Shown: positions 6,634 through 20,666, counted from the first letter of the stretch. The stretch is 64,000 nucleotides of DNA from Candidatus Adlerbacteria bacterium (GCA_026397405.1 JAPLUW010000001.1:43138-107137), one strand, 5' to 3'. Program-made: numbers and translations. Notes: generated from the letters alone by a model not told the origin.

Positions 6634-7539
6634 TTATTTTTTAGTTAATTTCTGTATTGCTGTCGTGACAATAGGAAGCATGTCGTCATAAAAATTGAGT
6701 TCAAGCGCATCCTGCATGCGGAACCACTTTGCGTCGTCGAGCCCGCCCTTTTGTTCGAGCTGTAATTCTTTGTACGGCGACTCTGCCAAAAAGTACGTCA
6801 CGTGTTTGCGCTTTTTACCTACTTTAGGGTCGCTCGCAACATATTCGTTTTCTCCTATTTTTTCTTTTATCTCAATGCTCAGACCAATTTCTTCCTTTAT
6901 TTCACGCATCGTGCCCTCTTCGATAGTTTCGTTTGCAATGTCGGGGTTGTCGCCAATTTTGCCCTTAGACAAGGTCCAGTGGCCAAAAATGTCATGCACC
7001 AGCGCCAAATAAATGTCGCCACCATGTTTTGCGTACACGACAGCACCACCCAAATGCTGCACGGGCAGTTCTTCATACGGGACATCTTTTCTTTTTTTAG
7101 AGACCTCGTCTTTGCCGGGCTCGCCCAGTTCTTTATACACAGCGCCGAGCACACCGTTAACAAACCGACCGCTGTTTTCGCCGCCAAAGTTTTTGGCAAG
7201 TTCAATCGCTTCGTTTATAGCAACCTTTGCAGGCACCTTTTCGCGGTCGGCAAACAAAAGTTCGTACAACCCAAGGCGTAGGACATTTCTGTCGACAAGT
7301 GCAATACGGTCCAAGGGCCACTCGGGTGCAGCTTTTTCAATAACTAAGTCGAGGTCAGCTTTGCGCGCAACTGTGCCACGCAACAAATCTTCCATAAATG
7401 GAAGATCGCCCGCAGCCGGAGCAAATTCGCCCGCGTTACGCATGAGAGCTTCTTCTATAAAGTCATTTTTGCAATCACGAAAGTCCCACTCGAAGAGAGT
7501 CTGGAGAACTACTGACCGTGAAAGGTGTCTGTTTGCCAT
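6634..7539 (-). CDS. nusB: NusB antitermination factor fused to a C-terminal NUDIX hydrolase domain.
   Basis: The N-terminal ~140 aa is NusB-like (LSRSVVLQTLFEWDF...RFVNGVLGAVYKE). The C-terminal ~150 aa has the Nudix box GTMREIKEEIGLS (GX5EX7REUXEEXGU). Start assigned to the ATG at 7539 (MANRHL...). Confidence 0.8.
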   Translation of the reverse strand: MANRHLSRSVVLQTLFEWDFRDCKNDFIEEALMRNAGEFAPAAGDLPFMEDLLRGTVARKADLDLVIEKAAPEWPLDRIALVDRNVLRLGLYELLFADREKVPAKVAINEAIELAKNFGGENSGRFVNGVLGAVYKELGEPGKDEVSKKRKDVPYEELPVQHLGGAVVYAKHGGDIYLALVHDIFGHWTLSKGKIGDNPDIANETIEEGTMREIKEEIGLSIEIKEKIGENEYVASDPKVGKKRKHVTYFLAESPYKELQLEQKGGLDDAKWFRMQDALELNFYDDMLPIVTTAIQKLTKK

Positions 7540-7660
7540 ATGTGCTCCGCGTATGTGCGGAAAAGAACTTACGAACCTTAGAACCAGAAGCAAATCAAGA
7601 ATGGATCCTGCCTTACCTCTACCCCCAGAACCGACGTTGCAGTCGGCTCCTCGACTCTGC

Positions 7661-7885
7661 CTATTTTGTAGGCGCCGAGGCTTTTGCCTTACGTACTGCT
7701 TTTTTTTGTGCCTTAGCAGCTACATCGACAACAACACGGCCACGATACCGGCCGCACGATGGACATGCACGGTGAGATACACGCGTTGCACCGCACTCGC
7801 ATTTTGCGAGCGTCTGTGCGACTAGGGCATGGTGCGAACGGCGGTTTGCCGTATGCGCCCTCGTATGTCTCATCCTCACTACCAT
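7661..7885 (-). CDS. rpmF: 50S ribosomal protein L32. It is hidden inside a longer spurious ORF in the supplied track.
   Basis: MVVRMRHTRAHTANRRSHHALVAQTLAKCECGATRVSHRACPSCGRYRGRVV matches the L32 pattern (RR-SH-AL ... C-x-x-CG ... H-R-x-C-x-x-CG-x-Y-x-G). Confidence 0.75.
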   Translation of the reverse strand: MVVRMRHTRAHTANRRSHHALVAQTLAKCECGATRVSHRACPSCGRYRGRVVVDVAAKAQKKAVRKAKASAPTK

Positions 7886-7964
7886 GCCGCAACCATACCA
7901 AAAAGAGCTTAAAAAGACAAGGCGCGGGCCGTGGATTACTCGAGCCGGACTAGGAGCCGTGGCT

Positions 7965-8558
7965 TTAGTGGCAAAAGGTCTTTCGGTGCATCTCTGACAG
8001 CCCAAACTTTTGTATCGCATCCCTGTGGGCTTTTGTTCCATACCCTTTATGGACCTCAAAGCTGTACTCTGGGAACTCGCCTGCGCGCCTACACATAAGG
8101 CGGTCGCGCGAAACTTTTGCAACGATAGATGCCAAAGAAATAACCGGTTCACTCGCATCGCCGCGGATTATTGTTTGCTGCGCATATTCGGGAGGCGCGT
8201 GCAGCAAACCATCTAACAGAACGTGCACATTTTTTGTATCCGGTGAGAGCTTTTTTACTCCTTTATATACACACCCTCGCACTGCTTTTGTAATACCTAC
8301 AGTATCTATTATCTGCGCACTACTAAACTCCACACAAAAATCTATCTTCCCCTCCTTTCTATATATACATGCACGCGCGTAAATTTCTTCGCGCTTTTTT
8401 TCAGTAACTTTTTTTGAATCTCCAACTCCGGGGAATGCTTTTTTGATATCAAAATTTTCTGGTGCAGAAACAACCCCAATAGCAACCGGTCCCGCCAAGG
8501 GTCCTCTGCCAGCTTCATCAACGCCAATTAAAATTTTTACCACACTTGCAGTATACAA
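7965..8558 (-). CDS. rnhB: Ribonuclease HII.
   Basis: ILIGVDEAGRGPLAGPVAIGVV signature, 197 aa. Confidence 0.9.
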   Translation of the reverse strand: MYTASVVKILIGVDEAGRGPLAGPVAIGVVSAPENFDIKKAFPGVGDSKKVTEKKREEIYARACIYRKEGKIDFCVEFSSAQIIDTVGITKAVRGCVYKGVKKLSPDTKNVHVLLDGLLHAPPEYAQQTIIRGDASEPVISLASIVAKVSRDRLMCRRAGEFPEYSFEVHKGYGTKAHRDAIQKFGLSEMHRKTFCH

Positions 8559-8603
8559 AAAGAAAACCCTCGGCCAGCGTGGAGCGCTAGCCGAGGGCCG
8601 TGG

Positions 8604-9596
8604 TCATTGAACTTGTGGAGAGGTGAGTTGTTCAGAGTGTTGTTTGACTTCGTGAGGCAGATGACCCACTTGCCAAAAAATGACGAACGACGCCAACACG
8701 ACGAGCCCGAGGTAGTAACCGAGCCACTTTGCTCGCACCCCACCTGTTGGATAGGCTCGGTCGTCAATATTGCCAGCATCGCCGTTTTCACTGCGTGCAC
8801 TGTCCTTGATCCAATACATCCCCGTGAGGATAATTGCAATGACACAGTCCATCACTGTGATGTGCCACGGTTGAGGGTCGCCGTATCCGAGGAACATCAA
8901 CGTCGCCATTGAGACACCCAGAATACCTGCAAGCCAAGGACGAAGCCAGAGTGTGAAGCGCTTAAAGCCGTCCAGACACAGTATCCAGATAAGCAGGATG
9001 CCAGGCTGACCTGTTGTAATGGTGTAAACGAGCAATACGCCAAGACCGACGTACTTGAACCAACCGCCAATGGCTTGCGTGACCCTGCCGCCATCCATTG
9101 GGCTAATCGGAATCAGATTGAACAGATTTAGAAAAATCCCAACGTAGCTCACCAGAAGTACAATCTCGGCGGTCTTGCCGTCCGTGAACGGCCATATCGC
9201 CAAGCATGCCAGTGCACCGATGGTTCCGAATAAGGGGCCTCCAAAGCCGACAAAGGCTTCGGTGTCGCGGTTGTCGAACTTGGGGGCAAAGATGACCGCG
9301 CCAAGGAACGGGATGAACACTGGGCCAGGTGTCTCATAGCCCTTCATCCGCAAGGCGATGATGTGTCCCATCTCGTGGATGAAGAGCATTGCGACTAGGC
9401 CTACACCAAACCACGGCCCCAGCCCTATGCCGTAGAGGACGGCTGAGATCGCCATAGAAATAACTGTGATCAGTGGCTTGGTGAACTTGAGCACCTTCAA
9501 AGCTGCGACGATTTTCGTTGACTTGATGAAGATAGTCATGGCCGCAAGCGCCAGTCCGATGTAGGATTTGCGCCTGCTCGTGTTGTCGTTTTCCAT
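8604..9596 (-). CDS. Site-2 protease family (peptidase M50) intramembrane zinc metalloprotease.
   Basis: HEMGH (HExxH) inside a transmembrane helix and NLIPISPMDGG (the NxxPxxxxDGG motif of M50). Polytopic membrane protein. Confidence 0.75.
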   Translation of the reverse strand: MENDNTSRRKSYIGLALAAMTIFIKSTKIVAALKVLKFTKPLITVISMAISAVLYGIGLGPWFGVGLVAMLFIHEMGHIIALRMKGYETPGPVFIPFLGAVIFAPKFDNRDTEAFVGFGGPLFGTIGALACLAIWPFTDGKTAEIVLLVSYVGIFLNLFNLIPISPMDGGRVTQAIGGWFKYVGLGVLLVYTITTGQPGILLIWILCLDGFKRFTLWLRPWLAGILGVSMATLMFLGYGDPQPWHITVMDCVIAIILTGMYWIKDSARSENGDAGNIDDRAYPTGGVRAKWLGYYLGLVVLASFVIFWQVGHLPHEVKQHSEQLTSPQVQ

Positions 9597-14681: not shown

Positions 14682-15620
14682 TTACGAACGGAATATTTGC
14701 GAGATAAGGAAGCTGTCTTCCGTAGACGGCTCACCGAAGAGAAATACTTTAAATTTATTAGCAAATGAATTTTGCACGCGCTTTACAAACATCAAGTATC
14801 CGGCAAAGACTGCCCACAGTGCCAAGAACAACCAGTACGCTACTTCGGCAGCAGTACCAAGGTCGAGGCCCGTGTACGGTACGGCAGAAAGGGTGACGTA
14901 TGGGTTGCTAATTTGTGCTTGTGCGTAGTAGGCAGATGCGTATCCATAGTTATAGTTGTACGCAAACGTGCTGCTGCCTCCCCCGCCTCCGCCCCCACCA
15001 CCTGGCGGCACGACGCAGTTCGGGTATACGCCTGTGCTGCCCGGTGGGCATACGCCCGGCGGAGTTGTACAGTTTGGGTAGGTCCCTGTTGTTCCCGGAG
15101 GGCAGACACCTGGTGGGGTCGTACAGTTTGGATACGTACCGGAAGTTCCGTTTGGACACACAGGCCCTGGCGGAACGACAGGAGGTGTCCCGCCGCCACC
15201 AGTGTCACCTTGAGTAGGCGAGGGAGAAGCTTCAGCAACTGCAACGGTAGGAGTATCAACTGTAGGTGTATCGACAGAAGGACTGTCTTCACCTTCACCT
15301 GGGCCGCAGCAACCAGCGTCATTACCCGTACCCCCCGCTCCGCCATCATCTCCAGCAGATGCGCCAGCACCCGCTCCGTCTCCAGAGCCATCCCCCGCTC
15401 CGCCGCCGCCATCACCTCCTCCGCCGTCTCCACCACCATCGCCACCTCCTCCGTCTCCGTCGGCATGTGCAATATGCGAGTCAAATATTGAAATTGTGTT
15501 GCTGTGGTTACCCGTCGATACAGAAACAGCCGAAAGCAAAAACAAGGTGCCAAGCACCAAACTGCCGCTAAGACGGAGTATGAGTCGGATATTCTGTTTT
15601 TTGTCGAGCCAGGTAAACAT
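14682..15620 (-). CDS. Gly/Asp-rich secreted surface protein with three CPPGTTGTYPNCTTPPGV repeats and a C-terminal VPYTG sorting-signal-like segment. Putative sortase substrate.
   Basis: N-terminal signal/TM. (GD)n and CPPG repeats. C-terminal NPYVTLSAVPYTGLDLG followed by a hydrophobic stretch, then KRVQN and a conserved tail ending DSFLISQI. Confidence 0.6.
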   Translation of the reverse strand: MFTWLDKKQNIRLILRLSGSLVLGTLFLLSAVSVSTGNHSNTISIFDSHIAHADGDGGGGDGGGDGGGGDGGGGAGDGSGDGAGAGASAGDDGGAGGTGNDAGCCGPGEGEDSPSVDTPTVDTPTVAVAEASPSPTQGDTGGGGTPPVVPPGPVCPNGTSGTYPNCTTPPGVCPPGTTGTYPNCTTPPGVCPPGSTGVYPNCVVPPGGGGGGGGGSSTFAYNYNYGYASAYYAQAQISNPYVTLSAVPYTGLDLGTAAEVAYWLFLALWAVFAGYLMFVKRVQNSFANKFKVFLFGEPSTEDSFLISQIFRS

Positions 15621-15715
15621 AGTAATTTTGTAATTAGATAAAGTGATTAAAGTTTTAATAATGGTTTGATGTAAAAAGTGTGGTCCACGGGTTTCCTTAA
15701 ACCCGTGGTTGCCAC

Positions 15716-16252
15716 TTATCGCGGTTCGCGAACTCGAAGTCCTGCGGCGAACAGCTCCGGAGGAGCATGTTTGCCGTAACGCAAACGTTCGGCGACTTGC
15801 TCGTTGGAGAACGTGTAGACGTATTTACTGGCGTAAAGCACTTCACCAGTCTGCGGATCTCTTTCGACGTCGATACAGAATGCCGCAGTCCCTCCAGTAT
15901 TCAGTGCCCACTCCCAGAAACCCCGACCCACGCACATCTCATCGCCCTCGACTTTGTACGAGGTATGTAACTCATTGTTGAGATTTTCGGGATTGGGATT
16001 TCCTAAAGCATCTTCAACAACAAAAGTCACTTTCCGTTTGCCGTTCACCCGGATGGGCATACAGACCAACGGACCGTTGTAGTTGATAGCCGGACGCCCC
16101 TCACGCATGTGCATGATGCACGCTGCCGTGTTGACGTAGACCTGCAAGTTGCAGTCCACACCTTGGGCAACTGCCGGGGTTACCGACAGTGCAACAGGCA
16201 TTGCCAGACCAAGAAGGCCCGCCAATGTAGTCAGAAATCTCGGATACTTCAC
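15716..16252 (-). CDS. Secreted hypothetical protein on a GC-rich island.
   Basis: Signal peptide MKYPRFLTTLAGLLGLAMPVALSVTPAVAQG. About 57% GC. No known domain. Confidence 0.5.
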   Translation of the reverse strand: MKYPRFLTTLAGLLGLAMPVALSVTPAVAQGVDCNLQVYVNTAACIMHMREGRPAINYNGPLVCMPIRVNGKRKVTFVVEDALGNPNPENLNNELHTSYKVEGDEMCVGRGFWEWALNTGGTAAFCIDVERDPQTGEVLYASKYVYTFSNEQVAERLRYGKHAPPELFAAGLRVREPR

Positions 16253-16426
16253 GAGTCGTCTCCTTAGGTTGTTGTTGGAACTTAAAAAGTCTCGTCCTGC
16301 AATGTTTTAGACATTGCGAGAGCATCTCTGCAAACCTCTTTCGAGATTTCCAATACATGCGCTCACAAAAAACTAAGCCCTGCTGGTGCAGAGTACCTCT
16401 TCATGAATGAATTTTTTATGAACAGC

Positions 16427-17080
16427 CTATTGTCCGGCTACAGCGTATGCCCCTACAAAGTCGGCCGTGACAATAAAACGGTTGCTCTTTGACGCGAACG
16501 AGTCGCACGTTACCAAGGTCAAATGTTTGCCTGTGGTCTTAAGCTCGATACTGTCCTGTGTTGCGTTGGCAACTTTTACCTGCACTACGCTGTAGCGATA
16601 TTCCATACCGGCAGAATAAACACTCACAAACTCACCTGGCTTCAAGTTTTGAATACCGTCAAAGGCTTTGTATGCCTGGTTGTGGACAATAGGCAGGTAA
16701 CTGCTGTGCCCAAACAACAACACGGTACCTTCGCTCCCGAGCAACGCGCTGCTTGGGTAGCGCACCGCACCTGTCAGCAACGCGTCGTCGAGCACCTTCA
16801 AGTCTGTTGACCCGGGGTTTTTGATAGACACATCGAGCCCAATGTTTTTTATGACAATGCGCACGGGGGCTTCGGGTGTACTGGTTGCTACACCTGCAAC
16901 AACAGCGGTGTTGTTTGTAATAGCCGGCTCGCTGGTAACCAGCGGGTGCAATGGTTCAGGCACTGCGTCGACACTTTTTAGGAAAAGCACGGTGAGCAAA
17001 AACATGCCGAGAAACATAGCAACAAACGCGCCACGGCGTTCGCCTATCTCACCTACAATGCCTTTGTTTGTTTTTTCCAT
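16427..17080 (-). CDS. Sortase (transpeptidase).
   Basis: N-terminal TM, conserved His in LLFGHS, and the catalytic Cys motif TLVTCD (TLxTC). Confidence 0.75.
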   Translation of the reverse strand: MEKTNKGIVGEIGERRGAFVAMFLGMFLLTVLFLKSVDAVPEPLHPLVTSEPAITNNTAVVAGVATSTPEAPVRIVIKNIGLDVSIKNPGSTDLKVLDDALLTGAVRYPSSALLGSEGTVLLFGHSSYLPIVHNQAYKAFDGIQNLKPGEFVSVYSAGMEYRYSVVQVKVANATQDSIELKTTGKHLTLVTCDSFASKSNRFIVTADFVGAYAVAGQ

Positions 17081-17162
17081 ATCTAACGTCTGGCTGCAAC
17101 GTACCCTTTATTGGGCTACTTGTCAAGACTCCCCCACCTCACGCGCAAAACGCGCGTAGTGT

Positions 17163-18308
17163 TTACGCGCGGGCGCGGCCCTGAATTTGCGAGAGTATAA
17201 ACGAGTCGACGGTGTCGAGAGCTTCACCAGTTGCAACTACCGCATGTACCGGGTGTACTTCAGGAGCATGGCTGTGTTGCGCAGGTGCTGCGTGGGTAGT
17301 GTGTGCAGCTGTAGCTTTGCCACCAAAGAGCGCAACAACACGGCGAGCAACTATGTTTTGTACGCGCTTAACAACAACTAAGTATGCGGCGAGCAAACAC
17401 CACACTATAAGGAAGCTCCAGTATGCAACCGTTCCCCAAAAACCAAGTTCAAGGCCGGTGTATGGAAGACTCGAAAGAGTTACGTATGGGTTGTTGGAAG
17501 TTACTGCAACTGGGTAGGTGCTTACATATGTCGGAGTTGTGTAGCTTGGGTAAACAGTAGTACCAGTGTAGGCAACTGTCGGCGACGGAGTAACAATGCT
17601 GTTGCAGCTGTTGGTTACGCAGTTACCAGTAATGTTTGTGGTAGGAGTCGTCGGTGGATAGTAGATGCTGCCGTAGGTATAGCCAGGTGACGAGTAGCTG
17701 TAACCTGGGTAGTACGAACTACCGTAACTGTAGCCACCATAGTTGTATCCACCAAGGCTGTAGTTTGCAAGGTTGAAGCCATAGACTCCTGTAACATATC
17801 CGTCTGATGTGTAGATTGTGGCAGAATTTGGAGTAATAGTTCCGTAACCGTTTGGTGTTATTGTCCCATAATTGTTTAAAGCAATAGCATCGGCACCATT
17901 CGGGGTAATCGTTCCGTAGTTGTCATTAGCAACAATGGTCCCGTACCCAGCATTTGGAGTGATGGTCCCATAATTACTATTTTGAGTTATTGTGCCGTAG
18001 TTATCGTTTGACGTAATAGTTCCGTAACCATTATTTACTGTTATTGTCCCATAGTTGTCATTAGCACTTACTGTACCAAAACCAGTGTTTGGAGTAATAG
18101 TGCCGTAACCACTATTTGAAGTTATTGAACCGTAATTTTGAGAAATACTTCCATAGTTATCGTTCGAAGTAATTGTTCCGTAATTACCTTCATCAGCATC
18201 CTGCGCGTATGCAACAGGTGCAGTTGTAAAAAGTACCACGAGGCCGAGCATTGCAAAGATACCGAAAGAAACCGGGCGTACTGCTGAAATATGTTTGAGT
18301 GTATTCAT
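17163..18308 (-). CDS. Secreted surface protein with about 15 tandem octapeptide repeats (D/N)NYGTIT(S/P)N, a Tyr/Gly-rich region and a C-terminal LPYTG sorting-signal-like segment. Putative sortase substrate.
   Basis: Signal peptide. Repeats NYGTITSN/NYGSITSN. C-terminal NPYVTLSSLPYTGLELG, then a TM stretch, KRVQN and a 60-aa tail ending DSFILSQIQ. Confidence 0.65.
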   Translation of the reverse strand: MNTLKHISAVRPVSFGIFAMLGLVVLFTTAPVAYAQDADEGNYGTITSNDNYGSISQNYGSITSNSGYGTITPNTGFGTVSANDNYGTITVNNGYGTITSNDNYGTITQNSNYGTITPNAGYGTIVANDNYGTITPNGADAIALNNYGTITPNGYGTITPNSATIYTSDGYVTGVYGFNLANYSLGGYNYGGYSYGSSYYPGYSYSSPGYTYGSIYYPPTTPTTNITGNCVTNSCNSIVTPSPTVAYTGTTVYPSYTTPTYVSTYPVAVTSNNPYVTLSSLPYTGLELGFWGTVAYWSFLIVWCLLAAYLVVVKRVQNIVARRVVALFGGKATAAHTTHAAPAQHSHAPEVHPVHAVVATGEALDTVDSFILSQIQGRARA

Positions 18309-18457
18309 ATGGTTCTTTTTATTGCTAATGCTTGGACCTTGTGCAGGTCATGACATCCACGAAATAAATTCGTGGAGGCTAGATTTGCACAAAACAATGT
18401 ACTAATTTCCCATGGAGCGAGTGCCAAGTTGGCACTCGCTCCCGGACACCGATGACG

Positions 18458-19261
18458 TTAGTCTTCGGTGTAGCTCTTGGGAGCGTAGAGATGCCCCGAA
18501 TTGTCTCCGATGACAACGCCATCGACGACGTAGAGCTTCTGGCCGGTGCATTCGTAGAGAATGGGACCGACCGGGGCGAAGGAGTAGACCTTCTCACCCG
18601 ACGCCTTCGTCCGAGCGTAGACACCAACCCGGCGCTTGCCCTTCACGAGAGCAACGGCGCACTCGGTCAGAGCGCTCTCGAAGATCTTCTGGGCGGTGAC
18701 AGTCACCCCAGAAGTTGCAGTGATCGCCGCGGTCACGTCTTCGACCGGAGCGTTCAGCACATCGCTCTTCGAGCCCGTCTTGAACGCATCGGCCAGAACA
18801 GCGGGCGAAACGCCGGGCGTAAAGACACGTCCGACGCCACCACCGGTCGAGACCGGCGCCGGAGCCTGTGCAACCTGCACAGGCGGAGCCGCGTGCGGAG
18901 CACCGTGAGGTGCACCAACCGGACGACGATCTTCCGGCTGGCCCTGAATGACTCCAGAGCGAGCCAGGTCACGGCGGTCGATGACCACCATGTTAGGATC
19001 CGCGACATGCGGAGTCTCGGCCCGGCGATCCGGCTGCCGGGACTGCACACCCGGCGGCGTGCCACGCGTATGCGTGGCCGTCCCGGGCTGGTTGTCGAAG
19101 GGGCAGAACGCCCCCACGGCAACCGGCTGCGAGCACTGGCAGGTAGCCTGCCCGACCTGGGCGTTCACGCGCACCCCCTGAAGGGTGCACTGGTAGCCCT
19201 GCGCCGAAGCGGAGAAGCCGACGAAGCCCAGGACAGTAGCGAGAGCGATTGACTTGATCAT
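18458..19261 (-). CDS. Secreted hypothetical protein on a strongly GC-rich island (about 65% GC).
   Basis: Signal peptide MIKSIALATVLGFVGFSASAQG, Cys-rich N-terminus, Pro/Ala-rich middle. The overlapping plus-strand ORF 18452..19252 is judged to be a GC artefact. Confidence 0.55.
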   Translation of the reverse strand: MIKSIALATVLGFVGFSASAQGYQCTLQGVRVNAQVGQATCQCSQPVAVGAFCPFDNQPGTATHTRGTPPGVQSRQPDRRAETPHVADPNMVVIDRRDLARSGVIQGQPEDRRPVGAPHGAPHAAPPVQVAQAPAPVSTGGGVGRVFTPGVSPAVLADAFKTGSKSDVLNAPVEDVTAAITATSGVTVTAQKIFESALTECAVALVKGKRRVGVYARTKASGEKVYSFAPVGPILYECTGQKLYVVDGVVIGDNSGHLYAPKSYTED

Positions 19262-19496
19262 GACGGTCTCCTTTCAAGAGACTGTGGGTTTGAGACCCGG
19301 TTGACTGATTGACTTACAACGAGCGAAAATTGCCGGTCCGAGAGATAAGATTCTAAGGCCTTAACTCACGGTACTTCCCAATTATAAACCCATTTAAGAT
19401 ATTTGTCAAGGGGTGTCGTTTGGGACACATTTGGAGGCCCCTGCCCGCCGGCAGGCAGGCTTGACAAGCCTTTTCAATTATGCTAGGGTTCCTGGT

Positions 19497-20666
19497 ATGT
19501 CAGAACACACAACCTTTAAGGACTGGGCGCTCCGCGTTATTTCTATACTCGGTCTTATCGCTATTTTGATCCTTGGCGCATGGGGCATTATCCAAATTGC
19601 CTTCGTACTCGCAGGGTTTTTAGGTAATGCAAGCGAGTCGGCATCAAACACTCCTGCTGTTACAAACACTGTCGTTAAAGTAGAACAGGTTATTGTCACT
19701 TCCCCTTCAACCATTACGTCGGGAGTTCCCTTTACACTTTCTTTCGCACATGAAAATGCAACAGGCAACTACAGCTACGGTATCTCCTACTCATGTGCAG
19801 CAGGCTTGAGCATTGCAGCCCCACTTCCAACCGGCGGTACACAAAACGTGCCGTGCGACACTCCGTTTAACTACACAAACGCTACTGCGCAGCAGCTCAC
19901 CGCAACACTTACCGGCAAGACACAGGTAAACACAACCTTTAGCGTTGGGGCAAAAAATCTAAGCACTCTTGCCATAACTGCAACGGGCACTGCCGGCGCA
20001 ACTGTGTTGCCAACTGTTTCAACCACAGCTGTAAAACCTGCAGCAACTACTCCCGCTGTGACAAAGCCTGCGGCAACTACACCCGGTAGCACCTACATTG
20101 CTGCAAAACGCACAACAACGTTGTACGGCCAGCCAGACTTGGCAGTGTCGACAGGCTCGGTTACACAAACAGGTGGACGCTACTCGGTGCAGTTTACTGT
20201 GCAGAACGTGGGCACCAATGTTACCCCTTCAAACTGGACCTTTAACGCAGTGTTGCCAACGTCACCTGCATATACCTACACGTCGGACGCACAGCGCGCA
20301 CTCTACCCGGGAGACAAAATTGTCTACACTCTTGGCTTTACAATCTCGCCTGGCGGCGGACAGGTGCAAAATAATTCGTACTCGGCCTACACTGTAAACA
20401 ATCCCTCATACGGCTACCAATATCAGTACGGCAACCAAAACGGTGCGTACACCTACCCTGCAAACTGCGCATACACAAACAACTACACCTACAACGGCCA
20501 GTACACCTACCCTGGCGCTGCGTTTGGATGCACCACAAACAACACTGGCTACAACGCCAACTACAATTACGGATATTCAAACGGCACAATGACAGTGCAG
20601 GTTGACCCATACAACTACGTGTACGAAAGTTCAGAAAACAACAACGCGGTAAACATCTCGCTCTAA
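19497..20666 (+). CDS. Membrane-anchored extracellular protein with a Thr/Ala/Pro-rich linker and a CARDB-like beta-sandwich domain.
   Basis: N-terminal TM (ISILGLIAILILGAWGII). CARDB-like stretch YSVQFTVQNVGTNVTPSNWTFNAVLP and terminal VDPYNYVYESSENNNAV. Start chosen at the ATG at 19497; the ORF could begin at 19413. Confidence 0.55.
   Translation: MSEHTTFKDWALRVISILGLIAILILGAWGIIQIAFVLAGFLGNASESASNTPAVTNTVVKVEQVIVTSPSTITSGVPFTLSFAHENATGNYSYGISYSCAAGLSIAAPLPTGGTQNVPCDTPFNYTNATAQQLTATLTGKTQVNTTFSVGAKNLSTLAITATGTAGATVLPTVSTTAVKPAATTPAVTKPAATTPGSTYIAAKRTTTLYGQPDLAVSTGSVTQTGGRYSVQFTVQNVGTNVTPSNWTFNAVLPTSPAYTYTSDAQRALYPGDKIVYTLGFTISPGGGQVQNNSYSAYTVNNPSYGYQYQYGNQNGAYTYPANCAYTNNYTYNGQYTYPGAAFGCTTNNTGYNANYNYGYSNGTMTVQVDPYNYVYESSENNNAVNISL

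Follow-up and report, generated by a model that had tools for sequence, protein, structure and literature searches.

Sortases of the LPXTG systems (classes A and E) are membrane-anchored cysteine transpeptidases with a His-Cys-Arg triad, and their substrates carry an N-terminal signal peptide and, at the C-terminus, an xPxTG motif, a hydrophobic helix and basic residues. Textbook sorting signals are C-terminal elements that end a few residues past the membrane helix, and the fragment left over after cleavage is usually treated as waste; to our knowledge, all described sorting signals stop after the basic residues. In this study, we analysed a 64,000-nucleotide stretch of DNA from Candidatus Adlerbacteria bacterium (GCA_026397405.1, JAPLUW010000001.1:43138-107137; hereafter the window), in which positions 14682-18308 hold a sortase and two proteins with a (V/L)PYTG sorting signal. 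The system resembles the LPXTG systems in the enzyme, its triad, the signal peptide and the three-part signal, and differs from them in five respects. The motif, (V/L/A)PYTG, has a Tyr that never varies and is framed by a conserved preface of 10 residues (PYVTLS) and a conserved spacer, GL(D/E)LG; the transmembrane (TM) helix is conserved in sequence, beyond mere hydrophobicity; the signal is not at the extreme C-terminus but is followed by 28 to about 280 conserved cytoplasmic residues; one sortase is paired with 1-3 adjacent substrates instead of many dispersed ones; and the anchor and class hidden Markov models (HMMs) fail to match the PYTG proteins and the sortase.

Other described systems share single features with this locus. 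Dedicated cassettes such as SrtB-IsdC and the class GN "marine sortase" (TIGR03784) also place a divergent sortase beside its own few variant-motif substrates, and there too the pairing rests mainly on co-localisation; they differ in sortase clade and motif, and their substrates end shortly past the TM helix. PEP-CTERM/exosortase, GlyGly-CTERM/rhombosortase and MYXO-CTERM/myxosortase were likewise recognised in silico as a motif, a TM helix and a basic cluster, lineage-restricted and tied to one enzyme (PMC3237569, PMC11980579), but those enzymes are unrelated and the domains end at the C-terminus, whereas here a true sortase is combined with a cytoplasmic continuation. A passage of PMC11502775, citing the original work, states that the C-peptide left by sortase cleavage in S. 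gordonii has a function of its own. A functional membrane-embedded leftover is what we propose for the window system as well; the S. gordonii peptide, however, derives from an ordinary short signal and is sensed in the membrane by a histidine kinase, whereas the window system has a dedicated conserved extension and no linked kinase. Genome papers on the candidate phyla radiation (CPR) remark in general terms that CPR bacteria encode sortases and that these are common there (PMC6744442, PMC5220378). Our literature search for PYTG, VPYTG or LPYTG and for sortases in CPR, Parcubacteria and Patescibacteria found no description of a PYTG signal or of its tail.

In the cassette, genes for a protein of 381 aa (17163-18308), the sortase of 217 aa (16427-17080), a secreted protein of 178 aa (15716-16252) and a protein of 312 aa (14682-15620) follow one another on the minus strand. 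Its main features are as follows.

17163..18308, minus strand: PYTG substrate 1, 381 aa, with signal peptide (..AYA|QD), (N/S)-x-N-Y-G-T-I-T repeats, a Tyr/Gly/Ser-rich region, the sorting module and a 68-residue cytoplasmic tail.
17454..17489, minus strand: extended sorting motif PYVTLSSLPYTG of substrate 1, with LPYTG at 17454-17468 (aa 281-285).
17370..17441, minus strand: TM helix WGTVAYWSFLIVWCLLAAYLVVV of substrate 1, aa ~290-313, Kyte-Doolittle 19-residue mean up to 2.2.
17166..17369, minus strand: cytoplasmic tail of substrate 1, with KRVQN (17355-17369), ..ALFG, a His/Ala-rich linker, DSFILSQIQGR (17175-17207), then ARA.
16427..17080, minus strand: sortase, 217 aa, with a short N-terminus that is cytoplasmic and conserved, a single TM helix (aa 15-41) and a catalytic domain with H125, C192 and R201.
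14682..15620, minus strand: PYTG substrate 2, 312 aa, with signal peptide, a Gly/Asp-rich region, PPGxCPxGxxGxYPNC repeats, poly-Gly, a Tyr-rich stretch, the sorting module and a 33-residue tail.
14868-14882 and ~14784-14849, minus strand: sorting module of substrate 2, VPYTG and TM helix (aa ~258-279, from hydropathy), respectively.
14685..14783, minus strand: cytoplasmic tail of substrate 2, with KRVQN (14769-14783), ..VFLFG, a short linker, DSFLISQIFR (14688-14717), then S.

A preliminary description of this stretch had proposed a sortase with a TLVTC motif, flanked by two signal-peptide proteins whose C-termini carry the motif, a TM helix and KRVQN and end alike. All of these elements were found at the coordinates above, and the common ending is DSF(I/L)(L/I)SQIxxR. 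The description had also given 30-65 further residues after KRVQN; the continuation is present in both proteins, and the shorter of its two actual lengths falls below that range, with 63 residues in substrate 1 (ending DSFILSQIQGRARA) and 28 in substrate 2 (ending DSFLISQIFRS). The string common to both C-termini is NPYVTLS(S/A)(L/V)PYTGL(E/D)LG, TM, KRVQN, ..LFG, linker and DSF(I/L)(L/I)SQI..R. In each protein, hydropathy analysis showed two hydrophobic segments, one at the N-terminus that resembles a signal peptide and one close to the C-terminus. By BLASTP, the two substrates are alike in the C-terminal module only (54% over 70 aa, E=5e-20), with nothing significant elsewhere. No other long open reading frame (ORF) with xPxTG and a TM segment was found in the window.

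The passengers ahead of the module are repetitive. That of substrate 1 (17500-18200) has about a dozen (N/S)xNYGTIT repeats followed by a Tyr/Gly/Ser-rich stretch, and that of substrate 2 (14900-15450) has a Gly/Asp-rich run, three PPGxCPxGxxGxYPNC repeats (Tandem Repeats Finder period 54, 15040-15149) and poly-Gly. Neither contains a single Lys or Arg after the signal peptide.

The last 115 residues, used in a word-based search, returned two homologues carrying the full arrangement. A profile built from four module sequences was then run against 1.84 billion cluster representatives. The results showed 747 matching clusters at E<=1e-3, of which 217 passed E<=1e-10 and 65 passed E<=1e-30. As a rule, the matches extend to the last residues of the protein, and nearly all of the top 150 have the whole module. 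The consensus of the top matches is x-P-Y-[VI]-[TS]-L-S-x-[VA]-P-Y-T-G-L-[DE]-L-G-P-x-G-T-x-x-Y-W-x-F-L-x-L-W-C-x-x-A-A-Y-L-I-x-V-K-[RK]-V-[QH]-N, followed after about 10 residues by F-L-F-G. PYTG was exact in 149 of the 151 family members examined, and the L at position -4 was present in 100%. Conservation continues into the membrane: over 149 homologues, the TM positions are Y (100%), W (98%), F (89%), L (91%), W (88%), A (99%) and Y (100%). The topology of the signal is as expected for a sorting signal, with the motif, a spacer of 6-8 residues (8 in the window), a hydrophobic helix of about 22 residues and K-R/K.

The tail after PYTG measures 51-140 residues in the family (median 92). The pattern [DENG]-x-F-[IVLM]-x-x-Q-[IVLM] ends 148 of the 149 top matches, 2-8 residues ahead of the stop, a figure biased by the presence of the motif in the search profile. 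Counts free of this bias come from the sortase-selected loci (below) and from six-frame ORFs over about 2 Mb of loci, where all 126 ORFs ending in [DE]xF[IVLM]xxQ[IVLM]x(1-2)[RK] carry PYTG; among these 126, the motif was never found in a protein lacking PYTG. Homologues from other metagenomes have the terminal motif together with the whole module as well, and the likeness of the two window C-termini is hence no coincidence. Matches that reach the C-terminus, a terminal motif lying near the stop and its confinement to PYTG ORFs all argue for selection on the tail. Between LFG and the terminal motif lies a linker of variable length and sequence, with 19% Ala and 6.9% His. Runs such as HTTHAAPAQHSHAPEVHPVH (e.g. 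17210-17320 of the window, minus strand) occur in short and long tails alike; metal binding or a pH-sensitive spacer are possibilities for this His-rich linker.

The preliminary description had called for a search for the arrangement in related genomes, and had named poor conservation of the tails across orthologues, or a hydrophobic segment forming a re-entrant loop, as findings that would overturn its proposal. The arrangement recurs in the 747 clusters, and the tails are kept across orthologues and across the large family. As for the hydrophobic segment, hydropathy, the basic residues C-terminal of it and the AlphaFold2 model of the homologous segment of a relative, one long helix with a predicted local distance difference test score (pLDDT) >90, point to a spanning helix. 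Three features had gone without mention there: the conservation of the whole module (the 10 residues ahead of PYTG and the TM positions Y, W, F, L, W, A and Y), the ..LFG element of the tail, and a folded cytoplasmic domain that replaces the short tail in related lineages.

Next to the module stands the sortase. It matches Pfam PF04203 with 65.6 bits (cut-off 26.6, E=4.6e-18), with TLVTC at 16505-16519 and the His of FGHSSY as H125; H125, C192 and R201 are invariant in 25 homologues. In all, 1228 sortase homologues were found, and the named ones are labelled Adlerbacteria, Paceibacterota or Patescibacteria. The AlphaFold2 model has a mean pLDDT of 80.5 and shows the eight-stranded beta-barrel sortase fold: Foldseek gave 132 PDB matches at E<=1e-3, all 50 matches listed were sortases (best E~6e-11), and the matches to class A, C and E sortases were about equal (E~1e-10). 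The nearest solved structure by sequence is B. anthracis SrtA (6e-8).

To assess the linkage between sortase and module, we used an alignment of 25 sortase sequences to scan a single genome for each GTDB species; 283 genomes were found and 80 loci were taken. The genomes listed bear the titles Adlerbacteria, Paceibacterota, Kaiserbacteria or Nomurabacteria, or generic or probably mislabelled names. A PYTG ORF was defined by P[YF]TG[LFVMI] and a hydrophobic stretch. The results showed at least one PYTG ORF in 45/45 sortase loci with >=5 kb on both sides. All 71 PYTG ORFs near a sortase were on the sortase strand and none on the other; 65 lay 0.7-6.7 kb downstream of the sortase and six upstream, five of these within 82 bp. 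Of 21 sortase loci without a PYTG ORF, 19 are cut within about 3 kb downstream of the sortase, while L042 keeps 7.9 kb and L066 4.1 kb. The reverse test was a metagenome scan with the module alignment, which returned 80 loci. A sortase was on the same strand in 48 of the 49 informative loci, 0.5-3.8 kb upstream in 44 of the 48. Among the remaining module-selected loci, 30 were uninformative (<3 kb upstream) and one had 3-5 kb upstream and no sortase; no locus with >=5 kb of upstream sequence lacked one. The co-occurrence that the preliminary description had suggested checking thus appears in both directions, and a dedicated enzyme-substrate pairing of the sortase and the PYTG module is strongly supported.

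Three classes of tail were seen among the 69 complete PYTG ORFs of the sortase-selected loci: tails with the terminal motif (43 ORFs), tails with a long cytoplasmic region (14) and short tails ending soon after LFG (12). Each informative sortase-selected locus encodes a single extended-tail protein, the majority of cassettes contain just one PYTG gene, and the short-tail forms were seen in these loci as second copies only. Such second paralogues without the terminal motif occur in 12 cassettes, for example L008:12073-12972, L009:7335-8465 and L035:13557-14624, with ends such as ...LYGDEWALS and ...FFEITA. That both PYTG proteins of the window keep the terminal motif is unusual among cassettes.

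The long cytoplasmic regions were found in loci whose sortase is 44-54% identical to that of the window. Their PYTG proteins are 560-1100 aa long, with about 230-280 residues beyond ...YLSQ(I/V)PYTGL(D/E)LGP and the TM helix. The loci are as follows.

L052:13143-14006, L053:13056-13874 and L075:14277-15167: long-tail PYTG loci, Kaiserbacteria-like.
L064, L065, L068-L072, L076, L081, L083 and L084: 11 more loci of the same kind.

The order of elements in the long tail is the FG element, a His/Ala/Pro-rich linker, GY..GF(K/R)SFA..L(S/T)IDDIVKGLSR, a second linker and a conserved block of about 105 residues. All 120 long-tail proteins retrieved are annotated as "hypothetical", and a precomputed Pfam domain is attached to just one of them; a single PQTG variant was seen among ten sequences of this class that were read. 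The AlphaFold2 model of a long tail (61-sequence alignment) showed a helix at residues 27-77 that runs across and past the membrane (pLDDT >90), disordered linkers, a short helix at IEDIVKGL and a six-helix bundle at residues 177-280 (pLDDT mostly >90). About 240 cytoplasmic residues with a predicted helical bundle indicate that the region after the TM helix is, in these relatives, a real cytoplasmic module.

In a Foldseek search against the PDB, the best matches of the bundle were the gamma/tau, delta and delta' subunits of clamp loaders, with about 110-117 aligned columns, root-mean-square deviations of 2.2-3.9 A and 17-21% identity, the best E being only 2e-3 in one search. Sequence profiles of the bundle gave no Pfam match, and a PDB profile search returned nothing below E=0.36. 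Domain III of clamp-loader subunits mediates oligomerisation. The marginal likeness of the predicted bundle to this domain III collar may be taken as a lead for oligomerisation, with no membership claimed: only the bundle of the long-tail relatives superposes on E. coli gamma (DnaX), the window proteins are outside the comparison, and the long-tail PYTG proteins differ from clamp-loader subunits in having no AAA+ module.

Short and long tails have an identical order of elements, namely TM helix, FG, His/Ala/Pro-rich linker and a helix of the IDDxxxxxxR type, and we infer that the window tails may be a shortened form of the long region.

Taken together, we read the locus as a dedicated sortase-substrate cassette, specific to Paceibacterota/Parcubacteria, in which the sorting signal is extended by a functional module on the cytoplasmic side, and we give this reading a probability of roughly 0.55. 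The substrates would be small, Lys-poor, Tyr/Ser/Thr/Gly/Pro-rich envelope proteins, exported via the signal peptide and held in the membrane by the C-terminal module. Its outer face would display xPYVTLSxVPYTGL(D/E)LG, with TLSAVPYTGLDLG / NPYVTLSAVPYTGLDLG as the predicted recognition segment. The neighbouring membrane-anchored sortase most likely cuts between T and G of PYTG, and the passenger would then be moved to an amine of the cell envelope, most plausibly peptidoglycan or lipid II. An SLT lytic transglycosylase encoded in the window suggests a peptidoglycan wall. On the cytoplasmic side, the TM helix is predicted to run into a juxtamembrane helix (KRVQN...LFG), followed by the His/Ala-rich linker and an amphipathic (I/V)DxF(I/V)xSQ(I/V)xR. 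The tail and the sequence-specific TM helix would dock or cluster the precursor beside the sortase ahead of cleavage, possibly on the conserved cytoplasmic N-terminal peptide of the sortase or by self-association. After cleavage, the tail would remain on a membrane-embedded C-peptide, perhaps with a further role. The anatomy, its conservation, the confinement of the motif to PYTG proteins and the linkage to the sortase are shown here; the cut, the acceptor and the role of the tail are what we infer from these features.

The N-terminal peptide of the sortase (aa 1-17, 17030-17080 of the window) is unusual in being conserved, and its two forms (L006-L084) track the tail class of the substrate. 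Sortases that accompany terminal-motif tails have KGxIxE[IV]xE[RH] (more fully, M..KG.I.E[IV].E[RH]..F), and those that accompany long-domain tails have VxLIRAxGRAYxxKWSF. This covariation could reflect a cytoplasmic contact between enzyme and substrate.

Several points weigh against this reading. The covariation is confounded by phylogeny, because the two tail classes are two clades. The motif-less second paralogues in 12 cassettes indicate that the terminal motif is not required for the module as such. A homology of the terminal motif to SIDDIVKGLSR of the long class was considered and rejected, since hhalign gave non-significant values (E=0.64 global and 0.22 local) and only the order of elements agrees. 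No cytoplasmic partner of the tail was found in the window and the loci scanned, and no stand-alone homologue of the long-class helical domain that might serve as a docking site was seen in the window or in about 2 Mb of loci, where only PYTG proteins have it. The organism is uncultivated, and PYT|G cleavage and wall attachment are predictions from sequence. The substrates have no match in Pfam (E<=0.1) or NCBIfam (E<=1), including the LPXTG-anchor models, which we take to be PF00746 and TIGR01167. Among the NCBIfam class models (A-F, GN, SrtD), none reaches its cut-off for the sortase, the best scores being 13-33 bits against 140-166 (class C, 32.9 vs 160; TIGR03784, 28.1 vs 158; SrtB, 13.1 vs 154), and the generic model TIGR01076 was also missed (33 vs 39.35). 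Judged by its profile and fold matches, the enzyme is a genuine but divergent sortase, outside every defined class.

We next weighed other explanations of the tail. Site-2 family proteases remove remnant TM peptides in other bacteria, and a putative ORF of the window with a match to Peptidase_M50, a site-2 protease family (8604-9596, minus strand, E=1.6e-12), adjoins dnaE about 5 kb from the cassette. In one such explanation the main task of the tail is something other than sorting, and sortase cleavage might act as a "site-1" event that frees a tethered cytoplasmic peptide, possibly after intramembrane cleavage, and so reports surface assembly inward. A single extended-tail protein per cassette would suit such a dedicated reporter, as would the folded domain of about 105 residues that relatives have on the cytoplasmic side, and the passage of PMC11502775 cited above has C-peptides of LPXTG adhesins signalling via a membrane histidine kinase. 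Even so, neither the tail nor its neighbourhood has a recognisable signalling domain, be it a kinase, a DNA-binding domain or another, the short tails (28-63 residues past KRVQN) hold little beyond a single binding helix, and the M50 gene is outside the conserved cassette; in the syntenic loci L001-L003, no gene of its size is called between dnaE and the RNase HII gene. We consider such post-cleavage signalling doubtful.

The conservation of the TM positions, far above that of ordinary sorting signals, would also suit type I membrane proteins that are never cleaved, in which PYTG and the TM helix form a juxtamembrane or oligomerisation element and the sortase uses the proteins as scaffold, acceptor or pseudo-substrate. 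Cytoplasmic domains of up to about 280 residues would be unprecedented on a cleaved signal, and the failure of the LPXTG-anchor HMMs agrees with this explanation as well. Yet P, T and G stand at the exact positions of sortase recognition, 6-8 residues ahead of the TM helix, in an essentially invariant PYTG, and dedicated pairs show just the pattern seen here, with substrate genes and a catalytically intact sortase linked one to one on the same strand. An uncleaved protein is, on balance, unlikely.

The window tails might also be functionless, decaying remnants of the larger cytoplasmic domain of the relatives. The shared element order, the wide range of tail lengths (51-140 residues past PYTG) and the existence of motif-less paralogues would all fit such decay. 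However, D, F and Q of the terminal motif are near-invariant in hundreds of clusters that diverge by more than 50% overall, while the linker varies, and both window paralogues keep the motif though their passengers are unrelated. We regard a vestigial tail as very improbable.

Pilus-type polymerisation, in which the flanking substrates would be pilins joined via an internal lysine by a class C-like sortase, recalls the substrate-sortase-substrate arrangement of pilin islands and the presence of class C enzymes among the best sequence and structure matches, but we reject it as scarcely credible because the passengers are Lys-free (both in the window, without Arg too, and 81/126 in the family), and moreover no pilin motif or Ig-like pilin domain was found, the class C model falls far below its cut-off and most cassettes have only one PYTG gene. 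The composition of the family passengers is of low complexity throughout (Tyr 12%, Thr 13%, Ser 13%, Gly 10%, Pro 9%, Asn 8%, Lys 1.3%, Arg 1.0%), and no recognisable domain was found in them.

Beyond the dedicated cassette with a functional tail, we put forward, as a speculative and rather improbable extension, that the PYTG module might be a transmembrane coupling device. The tail or the collar-like domain would bind the N-terminal peptide of the sortase or a cytosolic factor, the cell interior would thereby license, position or sense surface assembly, and cleavage would also serve as a switch, by signalling or proteolysis, from which a functional cytoplasmic protein tethered to the membrane remains. 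If that were true, this would be the first sorting signal with a built-in intracellular function, and in ultra-small cells.

Whatever the role of the tail, a whole uncultivated CPR clade has fixed a sorting signal with a conserved cytoplasmic extension. The sortase is present in at least 283 species-level genomes, the module comprises 747 protein clusters, and the extension spans from a single terminal helix to a folded helical bundle of about 105 residues. If the tail is functional, as its conservation implies, the module would be a new class of sorting domain and an annotation handle for probably major envelope proteins of Paceibacterota that are now "hypothetical". It would also offer a testable case of inside-outside coupling in the anchoring of surface proteins, and a novel specificity for sortases, with (V/L)PYTG recognised in an extended context, that might find use in protein ligation.

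The genomic context of the cassette is conserved. A Candidatus Adlerbacteria metagenome-assembled genome (MAG) encodes a protein with 97% identity to the window sortase, and the gene order on the contig concerned is the same as in the window: PheST, GyrB, divergent membrane protein, substrate, sortase, small secreted protein, substrate, ThrRS and DnaE. This order is also kept in a genome whose sortase is 63% identical to that of the window, and an orthologue of substrate 1 is present in the 97%-identical MAG and in the syntenic loci. Three neighbouring genes were noted.

15716..16252, minus strand: small secreted Cys-containing protein, 178 aa, signal peptide ..AVA|QG; a variable accessory gene that separates the sortase from substrate 2.
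18458..19261, minus strand: secreted protein, 267 aa, signal peptide MIKSIALATVLGFVGFSASAQG, upstream of substrate 1 on the same strand; a lineage-restricted accessory gene.
19413..20666, plus strand: divergently transcribed conserved neighbour with an N-terminal membrane anchor, two beta-rich domains and weak CARDB similarity.

Homologues of the 178-aa protein occur in the three closest loci only, and those of the 267-aa protein in two loci only. No conserved accessory gene was found between sortase and substrate in the loci compared; instead, several unrelated families of small secreted proteins occupy this place, each in 3-16 loci. The 19413..20666 protein is a more constant neighbour than these, with homologues on the opposite strand upstream of the sortase in 68/82 loci; its CARDB match (E=0.061) is below the threshold.

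Gene calling in this region is complicated by antisense ORFs. Two near-full-length ORFs overlap on opposite strands at 18452-19252 (plus) and 18458-19261 (minus), and public contigs of near-identical MAGs annotate the strand differently (L001 and L002 vs L003). The minus ORF is probably the real gene, given its clear signal peptide and its place in the sortase operon. Substrate 2 is likewise overlapped by a long antisense ORF at 14772-15491 (plus).

We also considered a resemblance of the terminal motif to the C-terminal peptide of FtsZ (D-I-P-x-F-L-R) and dropped it, as the spacing does not match. Members of 262-290 aa that start just ahead of PYTG, and so seemed to have no passenger, were another candidate that did not hold. 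Re-reading L086 at the DNA level revealed a mis-called start: the true ORF, 7413-8852, encodes 479 aa, in which a signal peptide precedes a poly-Pro/poly-Gly passenger, whereas the public call is 8001-8852. The other entries of this kind share the start position and so are probably mis-started as well. Public calls of PYTG proteins often start just ahead of the motif, with a spurious antisense gene placed across the poly-Pro/poly-Gly coding region, and such shortened calls explain why the 262-290 aa database entries appear passenger-less. In proteins of the long-tail class, namely the L086 ORF and protein P0318, a degenerate upstream copy of the motif, VTLAMLPHVG or VVLSSVPHVG, precedes ..YLYLSQIPYTG, which suggests a tandem duplication of the recognition segment.

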